NCBI GenBank assembly: GCA_041648395.1
Contig: JBAZPC010000004.1
Span: 1 to 36,791, forward strand
DNA: 36,791 nucleotides
Source of the DNA: Minisyncoccota bacterium
GTDB lineage: Bacteria > Patescibacteriota > Minisyncoccia > UBA9983
Direction of reading: 5' to 3'
Both the position numbers and the translations under genes were made by a program. Under the pieces are notes generated by a model. It did no database searches, was not told where the DNA came from, and was given only the letters and a program-made list of their open reading frames with translations. The stretch's first letter is position 1. Each line of letters begins with the position of its first letter. Shown piece after piece: positions 18,785 through 36,791 of this stretch.

Positions 18785-19381
18785 ATGTCAAAAAAGGAAC
18801 TATTGGAAAATTTGAATAAAGAAATGCTGGCGTGCAGTAAGTGCGCGCTGCGGGCGGGGTGCAGTCGGGTGGTGCCGGGAGAAGGCAGTGCCGAGGCGGA
18901 GATTATGTTTATCGGCGAAGGGCCCGGTAAAAAAGAAGACGAACTGGGCCGGCCGTTTGTCGGCGCGGCGGGAAAATTTTTAGACGAAATGCTGACGTCT
19001 ATTAAATTAAAAAGAGAAGATATCTATATTGCCAATATCGTGAAATGCCGCCCGCCGGAAAACCGCGACCCGTTGCCGGAGGAAATAGAAGCATGCTGGC
19101 CGTGGCTGTTGGAGCAGATAAAAATAATTGAACCTAAGTTGATAGTTTTCTTAGGCCGGCACAGCATGAACAGATTTTTTCCGAACGAAAAAATATCGGA
19201 AACGCACGGCAAGCTTTTGATAAAAAATTTCGGGCTAAACCCCAATGGGTCGCCCAAGAGACAACACTTTTTGGCTCTCTATCATCCCGCCTCCGCTTTG
19301 TACAACGGGGGAATGCGGGAAACGCTTCTGAAGGACTTTAAAAAAATACCAATGGCGCTGGAAGTTGCCAAAGGAAAATGA
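18785..19381 (+). CDS. Uracil-DNA glycosylase family 4
   Basis: C..C.L Fe-S motif, GEGPG, PFVGAAG, KCRPPENR, YHPA. Confidence 0.93.
   Translation: MSKKELLENLNKEMLACSKCALRAGCSRVVPGEGSAEAEIMFIGEGPGKKEDELGRPFVGAAGKFLDEMLTSIKLKREDIYIANIVKCRPPENRDPLPEEIEACWPWLLEQIKIIEPKLIVFLGRHSMNRFFPNEKISETHGKLLIKNFGLNPNGSPKRQHFLALYHPASALYNGGMRETLLKDFKKIPMALEVAKGK
19232..19255 (+). repeat. 24-bp hairpin module in-frame in UDG
   Basis: GGGCTAA-ACCC-caat-GGGT-CGCCC encodes GLNPNGSP; same scaffold as modules at 22265-22297 and 22695-22730. Confidence 0.7.
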
Positions 19382-21540: not shown

Positions 21541-21807
21541 TTAGTTTTTTGTTTCTAGTTCTAATAAATATCTTTTTATCAACATCTCTTTCTTTTCTCT
21601 GCGCCATTTTTTGAGCTGAATTTCTCTTTGCCTTGCTTCTTTTAGCGTATCATATTTCTCTTGAAAAACGAGTTCAAAACTATTTTTATTCTTAGTGAAA
21701 TTCGCCCCTTGATTTATATTGTGCGAATTAATTCTTTTATCAATATTTTTCGTAACGCCGATATAAAGCTTATTGGCGTTATTTTTTATCATGTATACGT
21801 AAAACAT
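21541..21807 (-). CDS. Small stand-alone GIY-YIG nuclease (#1, 88 aa)
   Basis: FYVYMI...LYIGVT...KRINSH...REIQLK. Confidence 0.9.
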   Translation of the reverse strand: MFYVYMIKNNANKLYIGVTKNIDKRINSHNINQGANFTKNKNSFELVFQEKYDTLKEARQREIQLKKWRREKKEMLIKRYLLELETKN

Positions 21808-21813
21808 AATTTT

Positions 21814-21896
21814 GTCCCTCGACTTCGCTCGGGACACTCGATTCGCCTATATGGCTTGCCACGAGTGAGCCCGAGTTTATGAGGGCGAATCGAGTG
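21814..21896. repeat. REP-like hairpins at tmRNA 3' end
   Basis: GTCCC-tcgacttcgctc-GGGAC (21814-21835) plus a perfect 13-bp IR CACTCGATTCGCC/GGCGAATCGAGTG (21835-21847, 21884-21896). Confidence 0.75.
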
Positions 21897-22237
21897 GAAG
21901 TGGGCGGATTTGAACCGCCGTGCAAAAAGTTTCTTAAAACAACTCTACAAGTTTGCTTCGGCTGTTTTTAATCAAGAAGTATTAGCCGAAGAAAATCTTC
22001 TTGATTTTGACCCAGTTTAATTTTGGCAAAATCCCTGAATCAAAAATTTTTGCCTATCCCAATGATGACGCCGGATTCCGCTTATTGGGAATCAGCGAAG
22101 CGGCGCCGCTTTACGCGTATGCGAAAGCGGAAATTGGTGACAAGTTTGCACTTATCGATTTTCTAAAAGTTTAGCGAGATTTTAGAATACTCGACTTGCA
22201 TGATTTAATACGTTTTTTGTCGATGCCTTTCACCCCC
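21895..22237 (-). ncRNA. ssrA: tmRNA; tag peptide ANLSPISAFAYA* at 22149-22111
   Basis: 5' GGGGGTGAAAGGCATCGAC; 3' T-arm GGCGGTTCAAATCCGCC and CACTTCCA; resume GCA codon with a hydrophobic/Ala tag; smpB upstream. Confidence 0.93.
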
Positions 22238-22404
22238 TAAAACTTTTTGCGAAGCAAAAAGTTCGGGCGACAGATTTCAGGGAAATCTGTTTAGCCCCTA
22301 AAACTATTTATTTATAAAATAGTCGGGCGACCCTAGCCCTAAACCCGACTGCAAAGCAGTCTAGGGTCGGGCGGGTTTAGCCCCTAAAACTATTTATTTA
22401 TAAA
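22234..22404. repeat. Array of alternating hairpin modules (CCCTAA...CGGG / GGGCG...TTAGCCC)
   Basis: CCC(C)TAAA at 22234, 22295, 22337, 22381; TCGGGCG at 22263, 22323, 22367; 30-bp direct repeat at 22289-22318 and 22375-22404. Confidence 0.85.
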
Positions 22405-22649
22405 TATTCTTTCAATACTTTTCTTTTTGTACGTCCACCCCAAAGGCTTTTCAAAAATCTTTCTCTATTAAATGCCCCTGCTTTATCTTGAAAATTTTCA
22501 GAATGGATAAGAACGAGTGGCCTCCTATTTTTTGTGGAAATAACATTTCCGTCGTTATGTTTTTTAATTCTATTTTCTAAATCACTCGTGCAGCCGACAT
22601 ATAATTTTTTGTCTTTTAAGCTGTAAAGTATATAAACAAAATAATCCAT
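22398..22649 (-). CDS. Small stand-alone GIY-YIG nuclease (#2, 83 aa)
   Basis: YFVYIL...LYVGCT...NRIKKH...RERFLK. Confidence 0.9.
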   Translation of the reverse strand: MDYFVYILYSLKDKKLYVGCTSDLENRIKKHNDGNVISTKNRRPLVLIHSENFQDKAGAFNRERFLKSLWGGRTKRKVLKEYL

Positions 22650-22660
22650 AACCTACTTAT

Positions 22661-22730
22661 CCCCTAAACCTCAAATCGCAAAGCGATTGAGGTCGGGCGA
22701 CAGATTTTGCTTTGCAAAATCTGTTTAGCC
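22661..22730. repeat. Two further hairpin modules between GIY-YIG #2 and smpB
   Basis: CCCCTAA-ACCTCAAATCGC-aaa-GCGATTGAGGT-CGGGCG-ACAGATTTTGC-ttt-GCAAAATCTGT-TTAGCC; includes the smpB stop codon. Confidence 0.85.
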
Positions 22731-23168
22731 TTGCTTTATCATTCGTTCTATCTCTCTGTTTGCCTCTCGTTTTTTTATCGTCTCTCTTTTTTCAAATTTC
22801 TTCTTTCCTTTCACGAGCGCCAATTCAATCTTGATTCTTCCGTTCTTAGCATACAACTTTGTTGGCACCATTGTCAACCCCTTCTGCCTTAACTTTCCCT
22901 CTAGCGAATTTATTTCTTTTTTTTGCAATAATAATTTTATTGTCCGCTCTTTTTCAAATCCCTTCGGCATATTTTCCGGCTGATAAGGCGGAATGTCCAG
23001 CCCCACCAAAAAAATTTCTCCTCCCCTAATTATCGCCCGACTTCCGGCAAGATTGCCTCGCTTGTTTTTCAGGGACTTCACCTCCCATCCGCGCAACTCC
23101 AACCCCGCCTCCATTTTTTCGAGTATTTCATAGTCATAATATGCTTTTTTGTTTTCAAGAAGAATCAT
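22725..23168 (-). CDS. smpB: SsrA-binding protein SmpB
   Basis: ENKKAYYDYEILEKMEAGLELRGWEVKSL...KFEKRETIK. Confidence 0.97.
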   Translation of the reverse strand: MILLENKKAYYDYEILEKMEAGLELRGWEVKSLKNKRGNLAGSRAIIRGGEIFLVGLDIPPYQPENMPKGFEKERTIKLLLQKKEINSLEGKLRQKGLTMVPTKLYAKNGRIKIELALVKGKKKFEKRETIKKREANREIERMIKQG

Positions 23169-25187: not shown

Positions 25188-25202
25188 TAGAACCATACAC
25201 CT

Positions 25203-25274
25203 GCGTGCGTAGCTCAATGGCAGAGCACAGAGCTTATACCTCTGCGGTTGTAGGTTCGACTCCTACCGCACGCA
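25203..25274 (+). tRNA. tRNA-Ile(UAU), CCA not encoded
   Basis: Acceptor GCGTGCG/CGCACGC plus A; anticodon stem CAGAG/CTCTG with loop CT-TAT-AC; GGTTCGACTCC T-arm. Confidence 0.9.
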
Positions 25275-25315
25275 TTGTTTTTATAATAAAATTTATATAG
25301 AATAACTACATTGGA

Positions 25316-34517: not shown

Positions 34518-36791
34518 ATGAGACCTGCATGGAAATCCCCAATCGCTTCTCATAGCCGTTTGCGCACGCGGTATTATGATATGCGTGAAAAGGCGAAACG
34601 CATCGCCTTGATTTTAGGAGTGGCTGTTTTTATTTTCTTCACCTTTCAATACTTCTCCTTAGTATCAAAATCATATGCCTATCTTTTGAACGCCTCGGAT
34701 TTATTGGGCCAGTTGGATGAAAACGACCAGCCGGTTTATACAAAAATGGGTATTGGTAATTCGCCAAATAATTCTGGGTTAAATTATCCTTTGGCGGGCA
34801 TAGGCGGTGTTACAGTTGATTCTTCTAACCATCGATTATTTCTTTCTGATACCTATAACAATAGAGTTTTGATTTTTAATCTCGATATTAATAATCATCT
34901 CATTGATCGAATAGCCGATTATGTCCTAGGACAACTTAATTTTTCGACCAATCAAGGAGGTATTGGTTCTAATGTTTTGAATCATCCAACCAATTTAATT
35001 TACGACGCAGACGGGCAACGCCTCTTTGTTCTTGACCCTGACAATAATCGAATTTTAATATTTGATGTTAATATAATAATTAACGGAGAAAATGCTGTTA
35101 ATGTATTGGGGCAAAATGATTTTTTAAGCAATACATCTGGATTGGGCCCCAATAAATTAACATTAGGATCTAGTGAGGTTAATGGTTTAACTTATGATTC
35201 AGTTAATAAACGATTGTTTGTTGGCGACCTTGGTAATAATCGTATAATGATTTTTGATGTATTAACAATCACCAATGGAGAAAATGCCGTTAATGTTTTG
35301 GGAGCTATTAATTTAACTACTCTCGGTAGTGGTGCCTGTGCTACTAGTTCTGTTTATGCGGTCACAGATTTAACTTATGATTCAACGAAACAATTCCTTT
35401 ATGTAGTTGCTGGTTGGGCATTAACATCACAAAGAGTTTTGGTATTTGATGTCAATTCTATAACTAATGGCGAAGATGCCATAAACGTTCTTGGCCAACA
35501 AGATTTTATTACTTGTACGGACGGAGTTGCTGCAAATAAATTTTCTTACCCAATGGGAGCAGTTATTGATCAAGCTAATCAAAAACTATATGTTGCCGAT
35601 CAAAATAATTTCCGTATTCTTATTTTTGATGTATCAACAATCACCAATGGAGAAAATGCCGTTAATGTTTTGGGACAGACAGATTTTATTTCCAATTCTG
35701 GCGGGACAACTCAAGATAAATTAAACCAACCGACGGCCTTAGCTTTATCAAATAACCAGTTGTTTGTTATTGATACAAGAAATAATCGTTTAGTAATTTT
35801 TGATACGGAAGTAATTTCCAATGGTGAAGCAATGGTTGACTTAATAGGTCAGACCGATGATTTATATAATGCTGTTTATACTAACTCAAATGTGAATAAT
35901 TCCCCAAATGGAAGAGGTTTTAATAGCCCAACTCATAGCGCTTTAGATTCTATTAACCGTCGTTTGTTTATTGCTGATTATTCTAACAATCGTATTCTTA
36001 TTTTTAATTTAGATGCGAACGATAGGCCTCAAGATTATATGGCTGATTATGTTTTGGGACAGACAGATTTTATTTCAAATATTAGCGGTGTGACACAAAA
36101 TAAATTTTCAGGTCCGGTGCGGTTACACTATGATTCTGATCATAATAGACTTTTTGTGTTAGACAGGAATAATAGTAGAATTCTTATTTTTGATCTTTCT
36201 TCTGGTATTATCAACGGCATGAATGCTTCTTACGTTTTAGGACAGACAGATTTTATTTCAAACATATCAATCACCACCCAGAGCGGTCTTAGTAGCTCTC
36301 GTGGTTTAACATATGATTCAATAAATCAAAAGCTTTTTGTTGCGGACAGTTCTAATAGCCGCGTCATGATTTTTGATGTGGCCTCTATTACCAATGGCGA
36401 AGATGCTGTGAATGTTTTAGGACAAACTGATTTTATTTCAAACGGGGTCACTCCCACTCAAAGCGGGTTAAATTATCCTGATGGCGTTGCCTACGATTCT
36501 ACCAACCAAAGATTATTTGTTGCGGATAAATTTAATAACCGCGTCATGATTTTTGATGTGGCCTCTATTACCAATGGCGAAGATGCTGTGAATGTTTTAG
36601 GACAGACAGATTTTATTTCAAACATATCAATCACCACCCAGAGCGGTCTTAGTAGCTCTCGTGATTTAACATATGATTCAATAAATCAAAAGCTTTTTGT
36701 TGCGGACAGTTCTAATAGCCGCGTCATGATTTTTGATGTGGCCTCTATTACCAATGGCGAAGATGCTGTGAATGTTTTAGGACAAACTGAT
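34518..36791 (+). CDS. Large NHL-repeat/beta-propeller surface protein, 3'-truncated by window (alternative start 34581)
   Basis: Missing from ORF track (no stop). The frame is open for 758 codons, with an N-terminal hydrophobic segment and 12 (V/L)(L/I)G(Q/A) units about 60 aa apart, e.g. RVMIFDVASITNGEDAVNVLGQTDF. Confidence 0.85.
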   Translation, partial: MRPAWKSPIASHSRLRTRYYDMREKAKRIALILGVAVFIFFTFQYFSLVSKSYAYLLNASDLLGQLDENDQPVYTKMGIGNSPNNSGLNYPLAGIGGVTVDSSNHRLFLSDTYNNRVLIFNLDINNHLIDRIADYVLGQLNFSTNQGGIGSNVLNHPTNLIYDADGQRLFVLDPDNNRILIFDVNIIINGENAVNVLGQNDFLSNTSGLGPNKLTLGSSEVNGLTYDSVNKRLFVGDLGNNRIMIFDVLTITNGENAVNVLGAINLTTLGSGACATSSVYAVTDLTYDSTKQFLYVVAGWALTSQRVLVFDVNSITNGEDAINVLGQQDFITCTDGVAANKFSYPMGAVIDQANQKLYVADQNNFRILIFDVSTITNGENAVNVLGQTDFISNSGGTTQDKLNQPTALALSNNQLFVIDTRNNRLVIFDTEVISNGEAMVDLIGQTDDLYNAVYTNSNVNNSPNGRGFNSPTHSALDSINRRLFIADYSNNRILIFNLDANDRPQDYMADYVLGQTDFISNISGVTQNKFSGPVRLHYDSDHNRLFVLDRNNSRILIFDLSSGIINGMNASYVLGQTDFISNISITTQSGLSSSRGLTYDSINQKLFVADSSNSRVMIFDVASITNGEDAVNVLGQTDFISNGVTPTQSGLNYPDGVAYDSTNQRLFVADKFNNRVMIFDVASITNGEDAVNVLGQTDFISNISITTQSGLSSSRDLTYDSINQKLFVADSSNSRVMIFDVASITNGEDAVNVLGQTD
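36234..36791 (+). repeat. Near-identical 360-bp-period intragenic duplication
   Basis: 36234-36431 vs 36594-36791: 1 mismatch in 198 bp. The 60-nt blocks at 36361, 36541 and 36721 are identical. Confidence 0.95.

Follow-up and report, generated by a model that had tools for sequence, protein, structure and literature searches.

Double-hairpin units and a resident mini GIY-YIG gene between smpB and ssrA in Patescibacteria

The repetitive extragenic palindromes (REPs) of Proteobacteria, their bacterial interspersed mosaic elements (BIMEs) and the REP-associated tyrosine transposases (RAYTs) are among the described systems closest to the locus examined here. REPs form dispersed, genome-wide families of short, imperfect palindromes in which the foot is conserved and the stem varies. 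In BIMEs, palindromes of 20-40 nucleotides (nt) are clustered in alternating orientation, and the nuclease gene of the system, single-copy and vertically inherited, is flanked by repeats. REP families carry a GTAG or CGTC tetranucleotide head (PMC3733652). A second described group, the mitochondrial double-hairpin elements (DHEs) of chytrid fungi and Schizosaccharomyces, is potentially mobile and occurs between genes and in rRNA genes (Paquin et al. 2000, as summarised in PMC10085805). In this study, we examine a 36,791-nt stretch of DNA from a Minisyncoccota bacterium (contig JBAZPC010000004.1 of assembly GCA_041648395.1; hereafter, the window), in which smpB, a mini GIY-YIG gene (GIY-YIG #2, or GIY #2) and the gene for transfer-messenger RNA (tmRNA; ssrA) follow one another and are separated by an array of hairpins. 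A first-pass annotation had described this array as a mosaic of alternating hairpin modules comparable to BIMEs and had proposed GIY-YIG #2 as the associated enzyme.

We conclude, with a probability of roughly 0.7, that the hairpins are copies of a mobile, dispersed double-hairpin element that is widespread in Patescibacteria, and that the BIME-like reading holds. The DNA from the smpB stop to base 1 of ssrA is probably accessory, composed of copies of this element and a resident gene for a mini GIY-YIG nuclease. The gene itself, of a small Slx1/UPF0213-like type, is likely to be a long-term resident of the ssrA 5' flank and a semi-selfish or selfish passenger there. Neither the element nor the smpB-GIY-YIG-ssrA arrangement turned up in the literature searched, and the double-hairpin element is apparently undescribed.

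Unit anatomy and the array in the window

The hairpin modules join into units of about 55-90 base pairs (bp) with the structure NN-CTAAA-hairpin 1-TCG-N'N'-CGA-hairpin 2-TTTAG-NN, in which the outer dinucleotides flank the unit. Each half-unit is one module: a 3-bp stem closes an asymmetric TAAA/TC internal loop, beyond which lies a variable stem-loop. Both halves read identically on opposite strands and have the central dinucleotide in common. Because modules share this dinucleotide, the strand must alternate from one to the next, and the junctions TTTAG-NN-CTAAA and TCG-NN-CGA are palindromic.

A metagenome scan, limited to units whose centre is neither CC nor GG, yielded 76 distinct units. 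The two flanking dinucleotides were identical in 65/76, and both equalled the reverse complement of the centre in 52/76, as compared with a mean of 17 and a maximum of 26 when centres were shuffled. With G.T pairs allowed, flank and centre fitted in 71 of the 76. Five dinucleotide classes occur: GG/CC, GA/TC, CA/TG, CT/AG and GT/AC. The covariation shows each module to be, on the predicted pairing, a hairpin in which a 3-bp stem (XYC/GY'X') closes a fixed TAAA/TC internal loop, and it fits the earlier suggestion that the scaffold is a recognition signal. The units also bear out the description of a constant scaffold with variable, paired stems: 96% of stem pairs are Watson-Crick, and the mismatches comprise 23 G.T and 27 A.C. 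Since A.C mismatches are as frequent as G.T, the stems point to palindromes maintained as DNA, and selection on them as RNA, which would leave a strand asymmetry that the mismatches do not show, was rejected. Loop orientation changes relative to the scaffold in 8 of 108 same-stem pairs, a frequency above chance; 4-nt loops are among the flipped ones, and such flips are expected of DNA palindromes.

In the window, the array contains three units, nested or truncated pieces, and GIY-YIG #2 (Table 1); the array, smpB, GIY-YIG #2 and the tmRNA gene are all co-oriented on the minus strand. The full-unit pattern matched twice in the window, where 0.03 matches are expected, and folding of the array against shuffles gave z = -5.4 as RNA and -5.5 as DNA. 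The modules first annotated on the two strands were recovered, as were the 30-bp direct repeat, the smpB stop codon within a module and the tmRNA 5' GGGG within the last module of the array. Two "collapsed" modules, at 22325 and 22369, had also been listed. The sites are present, but they are not separate modules; both are outer parts of the long composite hairpin of unit A, which has a complete module nested inside it (22336-22372) and corresponds by homology to one long hairpin in a relative, L003. The 3' arm and loop of the second hairpin of unit A are copy 1 of the 30-bp repeat, that is, a duplicated 3' end of the GIY-YIG gene. At the other end of the array, the terminal G of unit B and its flanking GG are tmRNA nucleotides 1-3; both ARAGORN and Rfam place the tmRNA 5' end at 22237. 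The tmRNA was the sole match of the Rfam search, in which the hairpins hit no family. A promoter and terminator scan of the array returned nothing above shuffle level, and no T-runs follow the hairpins; a reading of the hairpins as terminators was dropped.

Table 1. Coordinates of features of the window discussed in the text
Feature	Position	Strand	Description
Accessory block	22238..22734		497 bp; all units and GIY-YIG #2; missing from the contig of a related organism (X2)
Unit 1	22662..22730	-	GG-CTAAA-CAGATTTTGCAAAGCAAAATCTG-TCG-CC-CGA-CCTCAATCGCTTTGCGATTTGAGG-TTTAG-GG; between smpB stop and GIY-YIG start
Unit A	22296..22382	-	centre TCG-CC-CGA 22323-22330; hairpin 1, long composite, 22331-22375; hairpin 2, 22303-22323
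Unit B	22235..22296	-	GG-CTAAA-CAGATTTCCCTGAAATCTG-TCG-CC-CGA-ACTTTTTGCTTCGCAAAAAGT-TTTAG-GG; adjoins tmRNA
Modules CCCTAA..CGGG	22235-22267, 22296-22327, 22337-22371, 22662-22697	+	partnerless CCCTAA at 22382
Modules GGGCTAA..CGCCC	22265-22297	-	GGCTAA variant at 22696-22730
30-bp direct repeat, copy 1	22289-22318		100% identical to copy 2
30-bp direct repeat, copy 2	22375..22404	-	last GIY-YIG codons, stop (22398-22400), TTTAG-GGGG-CTAAAC; makes a truncated module at the gene 3' end
smpB	22725..23168	-	147 amino acids (aa); Pfam SmpB, E=1.7e-49; stop TAA (22725-22727) from the CTAAA scaffold of unit 1, within TTTAG 22724-22728
GIY-YIG #2	22398..22649	-	83 aa; stand-alone GIY-YIG domain, Slx1/UPF0213 type; Pfam PF01541, E=2.3e-14
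tmRNA (ssrA)	21894..22237	-	tag ANLSPISAFAYA*; ARAGORN; Rfam RF00023, 116 bits, E=4e-46
GIY-YIG #1	21541..21807	-	second mini GIY-YIG gene
Uracil-DNA glycosylase (UDG) gene	18785-19381		
Single module in UDG gene	19233-19254	+	GG-CTAAA-CCCCAATGGG-TCG-CC; in frame, adds PNGSP

The locus in relatives and the dispersed family

Six homologues of GIY #2 (69-84% identity) were traced to their contigs. All lie directly after smpB (gap 0-20 nt) and before the tmRNA gene, in neighbourhoods that otherwise differ. Between the GIY-YIG stop and the tmRNA there is one unit in L003 and L009 and there are two in L004, L006, L011 and L013. The position of unit 1 is empty of units in the seven relatives read, where the smpB-GIY gap is 0-20 nt; L136, like the window, carries a second unit, of a different dinucleotide class, at the smpB/GIY boundary. 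Array length therefore differs between relatives, at 0, 1, 2 or, in the window, 3 units plus extra pieces, and the invariance that would have spoken against the first-pass annotation was not found. Two loci from the source sample (L001, L002) are identical to the window.

The order GIY #2, unit or units, tmRNA recurred in 9/9 lineages that were found without the tmRNA-proximal unit as bait. GIY #2 follows smpB in every sampled lineage but one. That lineage, L163, has a consensus promoter upstream of GIY #2 and no smpB there, which reduces the conserved core to GIY #2, unit and tmRNA. The unit adjoining the tmRNA is the best conserved of the locus; its tmRNA-proximal hairpin is kept in four lineages as ACTTTTTGC-NNN-GCAAAAAGT, and the loop varies (TTC in the window and its reverse complement, GAA, in L003). 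A further unit lies within the tmRNA gene itself, at a helix tip, in L006 (L006:3609-3666) and L013 (about 2890-2950 nt after GIY), and such internal units at the helix tip also occur in L083, L165 and L181, the position being conserved across lineages. ARAGORN called no tmRNA in L006 or in its near-identical copies L007 and L008; the program misses tmRNA genes with an internal unit.

A counterpart lacking the whole accessory block is found in X2, one 1,342-nt contig from another groundwater metagenome, in which the tmRNA (98% identity) is separated by two bases from smpB (86%). The contig skips exactly 22238-22734 (joint 22237 to 22735, with at least 255 nt aligned on each side). Its junction in the sense direction reads ...ATGATAAAAC joined to GGGGGTGAAAGG, so that smpB ends in TGA at tmRNA nucleotides 6-8 and the empty site is coherent. 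The similarity of X2 to window positions 21894-23156 is a mosaic, and the 358 nt past its tmRNA 3' end do not match the GIY-YIG #1 cassette of the window. This pattern points to recombination that broke at the smpB/ssrA junction, or to a tmRNA gene exchanged horizontally.

Beyond this locus, one genome per prokaryotic species was searched with a strict unit pattern. Units occur at no fewer than 118 genome loci, almost all in metagenome-assembled genomes of Patescibacteria, and in several genomes copies lie on different contigs. The modules are hence not confined to the window, the other outcome that would have counted against the first-pass annotation; they belong to a dispersed family of palindromic repeats in alternating orientation, and the comparison with BIMEs is borne out in this respect. 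Units stand at hundreds of unrelated sites. Two near-perfect hairpins are present in 105/126 units. By context, 11 of the 126 are flush with a tRNA 5' end, 8 are flush with a tmRNA 5' end, about 35 lie within long open reading frames (ORFs), and 14 lie within 400 bp of a mini GIY-YIG gene, 12 of these at the smpB-GIY #2-tmRNA locus; more units are flush in reverse orientation or at tRNA 3' ends. The unit ends, CTAAA...TTTAG, are terminal inverted repeats and are often extended to CTAAAHCA...TGDTTTAG; the search pattern imposes the inverted repeats in part, and they are also present in units found through the protein. Units are duplicated in tandem in L054 and L123. A unit of the CA/TG/CA class occupies one site in many metagenome contigs, with the flanks GTTTCA...CACCCA (e.g. 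L142, L148, L150 and L153). No units were found in the viral contigs of IMG/VR, and a phage origin is accordingly unsupported.

The UDG gene offers a second site at which occupied and empty states can be compared. The same UDG codon exists in three states: without an insert (L225, L226), with a half unit (window) and with a full unit (L003). At the UDG comparison, L225 and L226, both without an insert, are closer relatives than L003. Both hairpins of the L003 UDG unit are those of unit B of the window, one with its loop flipped. The same hairpin pair thus stands at different loci in sister lineages, and units have been gained and lost between close relatives. In a joined-flank BLAST for empty sites over about 210 loci, UDG was the sole case. 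Other UDG homologues (P0149, P0153, P0173, P0176 and P0180) carry a different insert of 5-7 aa, (S/N)LPAGR, a few residues from the same loop, and hairpins seem to insert there preferentially.

Several points weigh against the reading of the units as a mobile family. Movement of the element is deduced from comparison of sequences. The genome scans used fixed scaffold patterns, which impose part of the scaffold invariance; the same invariance is seen free of pattern bias in about 15 units found through the GIY protein. Many of the covarying units are orthologous copies of one site, for example 16 of the CA/TG/CA class. The empty tmRNA site is one Logan contig from another organism. Finally, the empty UDG alleles (L225, L226) already carry the 9 nt with which the element begins, GGGCTAAAC, so that we do not call the 2-nt flanking repeat a proven target-site duplication, a caution to which the position of the tmRNA insertion site in a G run is also relevant. 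Insertion at UDG may have been sequence-directed, through a landing pad or conversion, or the empty alleles may be footprints; the small homologue tree is poorly resolved.

Three further observations concern the window and its relatives outside the array. A tRNA-Ile (anticodon TAT) called by ARAGORN adjoins ftsH in the window (25202-25275) and again in the distant relative L006 (L006:416-489). The product of the ftsH gene that adjoins smpB in L013/L015:1-1979 is 1,076 aa long and includes intein and LAGLIDADG domains. At window positions 36396-36780, the 25-nt string CTAAAACATTCACAGCATCTTCGCC recurs exactly every 180 nt in three copies on the minus strand, overlapping a plus-strand ORF (34518-36791), which suggests a 180-bp tandem repeat and not a hairpin module.

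GIY-YIG #2 and candidate agents of unit movement

GIY #2 has 547 homologues at E <=1e-5, most of which are 87-89 aa long; the few named ones are labelled as belonging to the Patescibacteria group. In the window, a CAA-to-TAA change stops the protein 6 codons before its 89-aa relatives. The family-invariant residues include Y6, Y17, G19, R27, H31 and E63, which we take to be the catalytic set of GIY-YIG enzymes. The best relatives in the PDB are the UPF0213 proteins 1ywl (E = 9e-10) and 1zg2 (E = 2e-9), with SLX1 next, weakly. Both 1ywl and 1zg2 are bacterial Slx1-family members (PMC1564403). From these similarities, GIY #2 is predicted to be a minimal bacterial protein of the Slx1/UPF0213 type, a bare catalytic domain of 83-89 aa.

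Pairwise distances of GIY #2 track those of SmpB across 18 loci (Mantel r = 0.62, 0/2000 permutations); its divergence rate is about that of SmpB among close relatives and saturates lower. The window protein is unusually near the L004/L107 clade. Between the window and L003, GIY #2 is the most conserved gene of the neighbourhood at the DNA level (82.5% vs 68-78%). It is nonetheless dispensable, being a pseudogene with internal deletions in L040 and L062 and absent from L038, L131 and X2. A classical homing reading of GIY #2 is weakened by the co-divergence with SmpB and by the lack of a separate DNA-binding domain, and a search upstream of GIY #2 for a duplicated tmRNA 5' fragment, as is found in tRNA-splitting cassettes, gave only a weak 10/16 similarity at the smpB end.

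Other mini GIY-YIG genes were seen at stable-RNA genes. GIY-YIG #1 follows directly after the tmRNA 3' end (21541-21893), behind two different hairpins (ACTCGATTCGCC...GGCGAATCGAGT and GTCCCTCGACTTCGCTCGGGAC), and a mini GIY-YIG gene is likewise positioned after the tmRNA in L165 and L181. At L171:1103-1500, a mini GIY-YIG cassette of another family lies by a tRNA gene; a unit is followed by a duplicated tRNA 5' fragment (GAAGGGTGGCTG), and the intact tRNA comes after the GIY gene. L097 has a mini GIY-YIG cassette of another family beside a tRNA gene.

The proposed course of events, whichever the agent, is that units would spread as DNA. Cuts by a structure- or sequence-specific nuclease, at the foot of a hairpin or at a palindromic junction (TTTAG-NN-CTAAA or TCG-NN-CGA), would be repaired by copying in another unit. 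Units would persist at tolerant sites, such as the 5' ends of tRNAs and tmRNAs that start with G, which could be regenerated by the terminal G and GG of the unit, as well as the surface loops of proteins and the helix tips of structured RNAs. Arrays could lengthen when units insert again at junctions already present, nest within hairpins or are duplicated in tandem, and intrastrand repair could keep drifting arms perfectly paired while flipping a loop now and then.

The mini GIY-YIG family at the smpB-tmRNA locus is the best candidate for the enzyme of the units, a suggestion we make tentatively. GIY-YIG is the top Pfam family among 133 ORFs adjoining units (11 members, ahead of MraZ with 5/133) and the only nuclease family enriched there. 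Of 20 mini GIY-YIG ORFs, 17 have a module within 300 bp, against 16% for random segments (1.42 Mb of loci), and the figure is 5/8 when the smpB loci are left out. This enrichment favours the enzyme proposed in the first-pass annotation without establishing it, and about 90% of units have no GIY-YIG gene within 400 bp. A bolder version would make the units and an Slx1-like mini GIY-YIG protein a two-component system resembling a REPtron, with a GIY-YIG in place of the HUH enzyme, and we regard it as doubtful. The nuclease, 89 aa long, domesticated and inherited vertically, would be expressed from the transcript of the tmRNA and would recognise either the palindromic junctions (TTTAG-NN-CTAAA and TCG-NN-CGA) or, on extruded hairpins, the CTAAA/TCG scaffold; its cuts around the dinucleotide would drive copy-in, excision and hairpin inversion of units across Patescibacteria genomes, with targets that include RNase P RNA, tmRNA, tRNA leaders and genes for essential proteins. 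In the corresponding REP/RAYT-like account, which the sequences leave unlikely, the single-copy, vertically inherited GIY #2 would serve as a dedicated, trans-acting "transposase" whose cuts about the flanking and central dinucleotides would leave a short 3' stagger. Consistent with such a role, GIY #2 was never without an adjoining unit in the nine unbiased lineages, has units of different subfamilies on both sides in the window and L136, and co-diverges with SmpB, as domesticated RAYTs do with host genes; it is kin of the structure-specific Slx1 family, and its family alone among nucleases is enriched beside units, where none of the 25 Pfam families listed for the 133 ORFs is of HUH, DDE, integrase or resolvase type. 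A trans-acting single-copy enzyme would not, however, be expected beside units. GIY-YIG restriction enzymes act as dimers on short palindromes such as TCN|GA and leave 1-2-nt 3' overhangs (PMC3045582), a mode of cutting that would suit the palindromic junctions around the dinucleotide. The distance of most units from any GIY-YIG gene is compatible with action in trans and is not evidence for it. Units moreover remain in L038, L040, L062 and the L131 genome, which have a deleted GIY #2 or none, and other mini GIY-YIG families, in cassettes that duplicate tRNA 5' fragments, also adjoin units at tRNA genes (L171, L097). As such cassettes and the units are both drawn to tRNA and tmRNA genes, a shared habitat could explain their co-location.

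That shared habitat is the core of an alternative that is a real possibility, if short of even odds: the units and the GIY-YIG gene would be independent passengers that share a safe haven at stable-RNA gene boundaries, the units being moved by an unlinked enzyme (a RAYT or IS200-like HUH enzyme, or another) or by template switching at palindromes during host replication or repair. Most units are distant from any GIY-YIG gene, a tmRNA 5' end carries units where GIY #2 is absent (L038), and cassettes of other GIY-YIG families target tRNA genes by themselves. By analogy, the pairing of flanking with internal dinucleotides resembles the guide/cleavage-site pairing of the IS200/IS605 TnpA, and the first 9 nt of the element in the empty UDG alleles would suit copying driven by microhomology. 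This account leaves the GIY-YIG enrichment that persists outside the smpB locus to be explained, and no family of the kind it calls upon is among the 25 listed for the neighbouring ORFs. A different proposal, that the hairpins are functional RNA structures of a smpB-GIY-ssrA transcript (a leader for processing by RNase P or RNase III, an insulator of the tmRNA 5' GGGG or a stabiliser of the mRNA), we consider very improbable. The co-orientation of genes and array and the lack of a sigma-70-like promoter in the scan of the array agree with it, as does the promoter of L163, from which the tmRNA would carry a leader; the central CCC can pair with an upstream GGC or with tmRNA G1-G3, and conservation is highest in the tmRNA-adjoining unit. 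Against this stand the A.C mismatches, as many in the stems as G.T, and the placement of units in both orientations, at tRNA 3' ends, within ORFs and within tmRNA itself. The X2 relative does without any leader, its smpB overlapping the tmRNA, and no Rfam family matched the hairpins.

Comparison with known systems

Tiny and streamlined as Patescibacteria genomes are, the double-hairpin element has spread through the group into structured RNAs, essential proteins and the leaders of tRNAs and tmRNAs. Proteins can gain residues from its units, UDG being one example, and a gene can take its stop codon from one, as smpB does.

Of the known systems, REPs and BIMEs share with the element the dispersed family of palindromes, the constant foot with variable stems and the alternating clusters, the modules here being about 30-36 nt long and alternating both in the window and in relatives; GIY #2 mirrors the layout of their single-copy nuclease gene flanked by repeats. 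The units differ in that the hairpin foot carries the scaffold CTAAA/TCG, and not the GTAG or CGTC of the REP families described in PMC3733652. REPs are extragenic, whereas about 35/126 units lie within long ORFs and others within tmRNA genes. Lacking the head and having intragenic copies, the units fall outside the REPs. Neighbouring modules here also overlap through the shared central dinucleotide, the adjoining enzyme gene is GIY-YIG and not HUH-Y1, and the hosts are Patescibacteria.

In architecture alone, the units recall the mitochondrial DHEs, which in the summary cited above are likewise tens of nucleotides long, have two adjacent hairpins and occur in RNA genes as well, their enzyme not being known. 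The likeness is one of description, and no sequence relationship is expected; DHEs are GC-rich and organellar, in contrast to the mostly AT-rich stems of the units, and the available part of PMC10085805 does not mention a covarying flank/centre dinucleotide or placement flush with tRNA genes.

Rickettsia palindromic elements (RPEs) and miniature inverted-repeat transposable elements (MITEs; e.g. Correia elements) are comparable as small, non-autonomous palindromic insertions that occur in frame in protein genes and in RNA genes. Like MITEs, the units have terminal inverted repeats, CTAAA...TTTAG, together with a 2-bp flanking repeat. They are shorter, at 55-90 bp as compared with about 100-150 bp, and consist of two hairpins with a palindromic centre. 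We know of no parent insertion sequence with the same ends, and no autonomous parent element with unit ends was seen in the loci read, a genome-wide search for one not having been made. The ends of IS200/IS605 elements (TnpA-Y1) have subterminal hairpins, and their short flanking nucleotides are matched by an internal complementary sequence. In the units, by contrast, the complementarity is the closing stem of each hairpin and the hairpins occupy both strands and not one; none of the 25 Pfam families listed for neighbouring ORFs is a Y1 transposase.

As for the gene, GIY #2 resembles the free-standing GIY-YIG homing endonucleases of the phage T4 Seg type in being an ORF wedged between two conserved genes, with the stable-RNA gene left intact, in being absent from or decayed in some relatives (X2, L038, L040 and L062) and in having a catalytic domain with invariant residues of catalytic type. 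It differs in its size of 83-89 aa, in its membership of the Slx1/UPF0213 clade and not the homing endonuclease/UvrC clade, and in its deep co-divergence with SmpB, which is unlike a rapid cycle of gain and loss. Having no DNA-binding domain, it falls outside the classical homing endonucleases. Its closest match is with the bacterial Slx1/UPF0213 proteins, as a stand-alone domain of about 90-100 aa nearest to the UPF0213 structures. The explicit architecture of the units, together with this enriched minimal Slx1-type neighbour, makes the long-open role of bacterial UPF0213/Slx1-like proteins directly testable.

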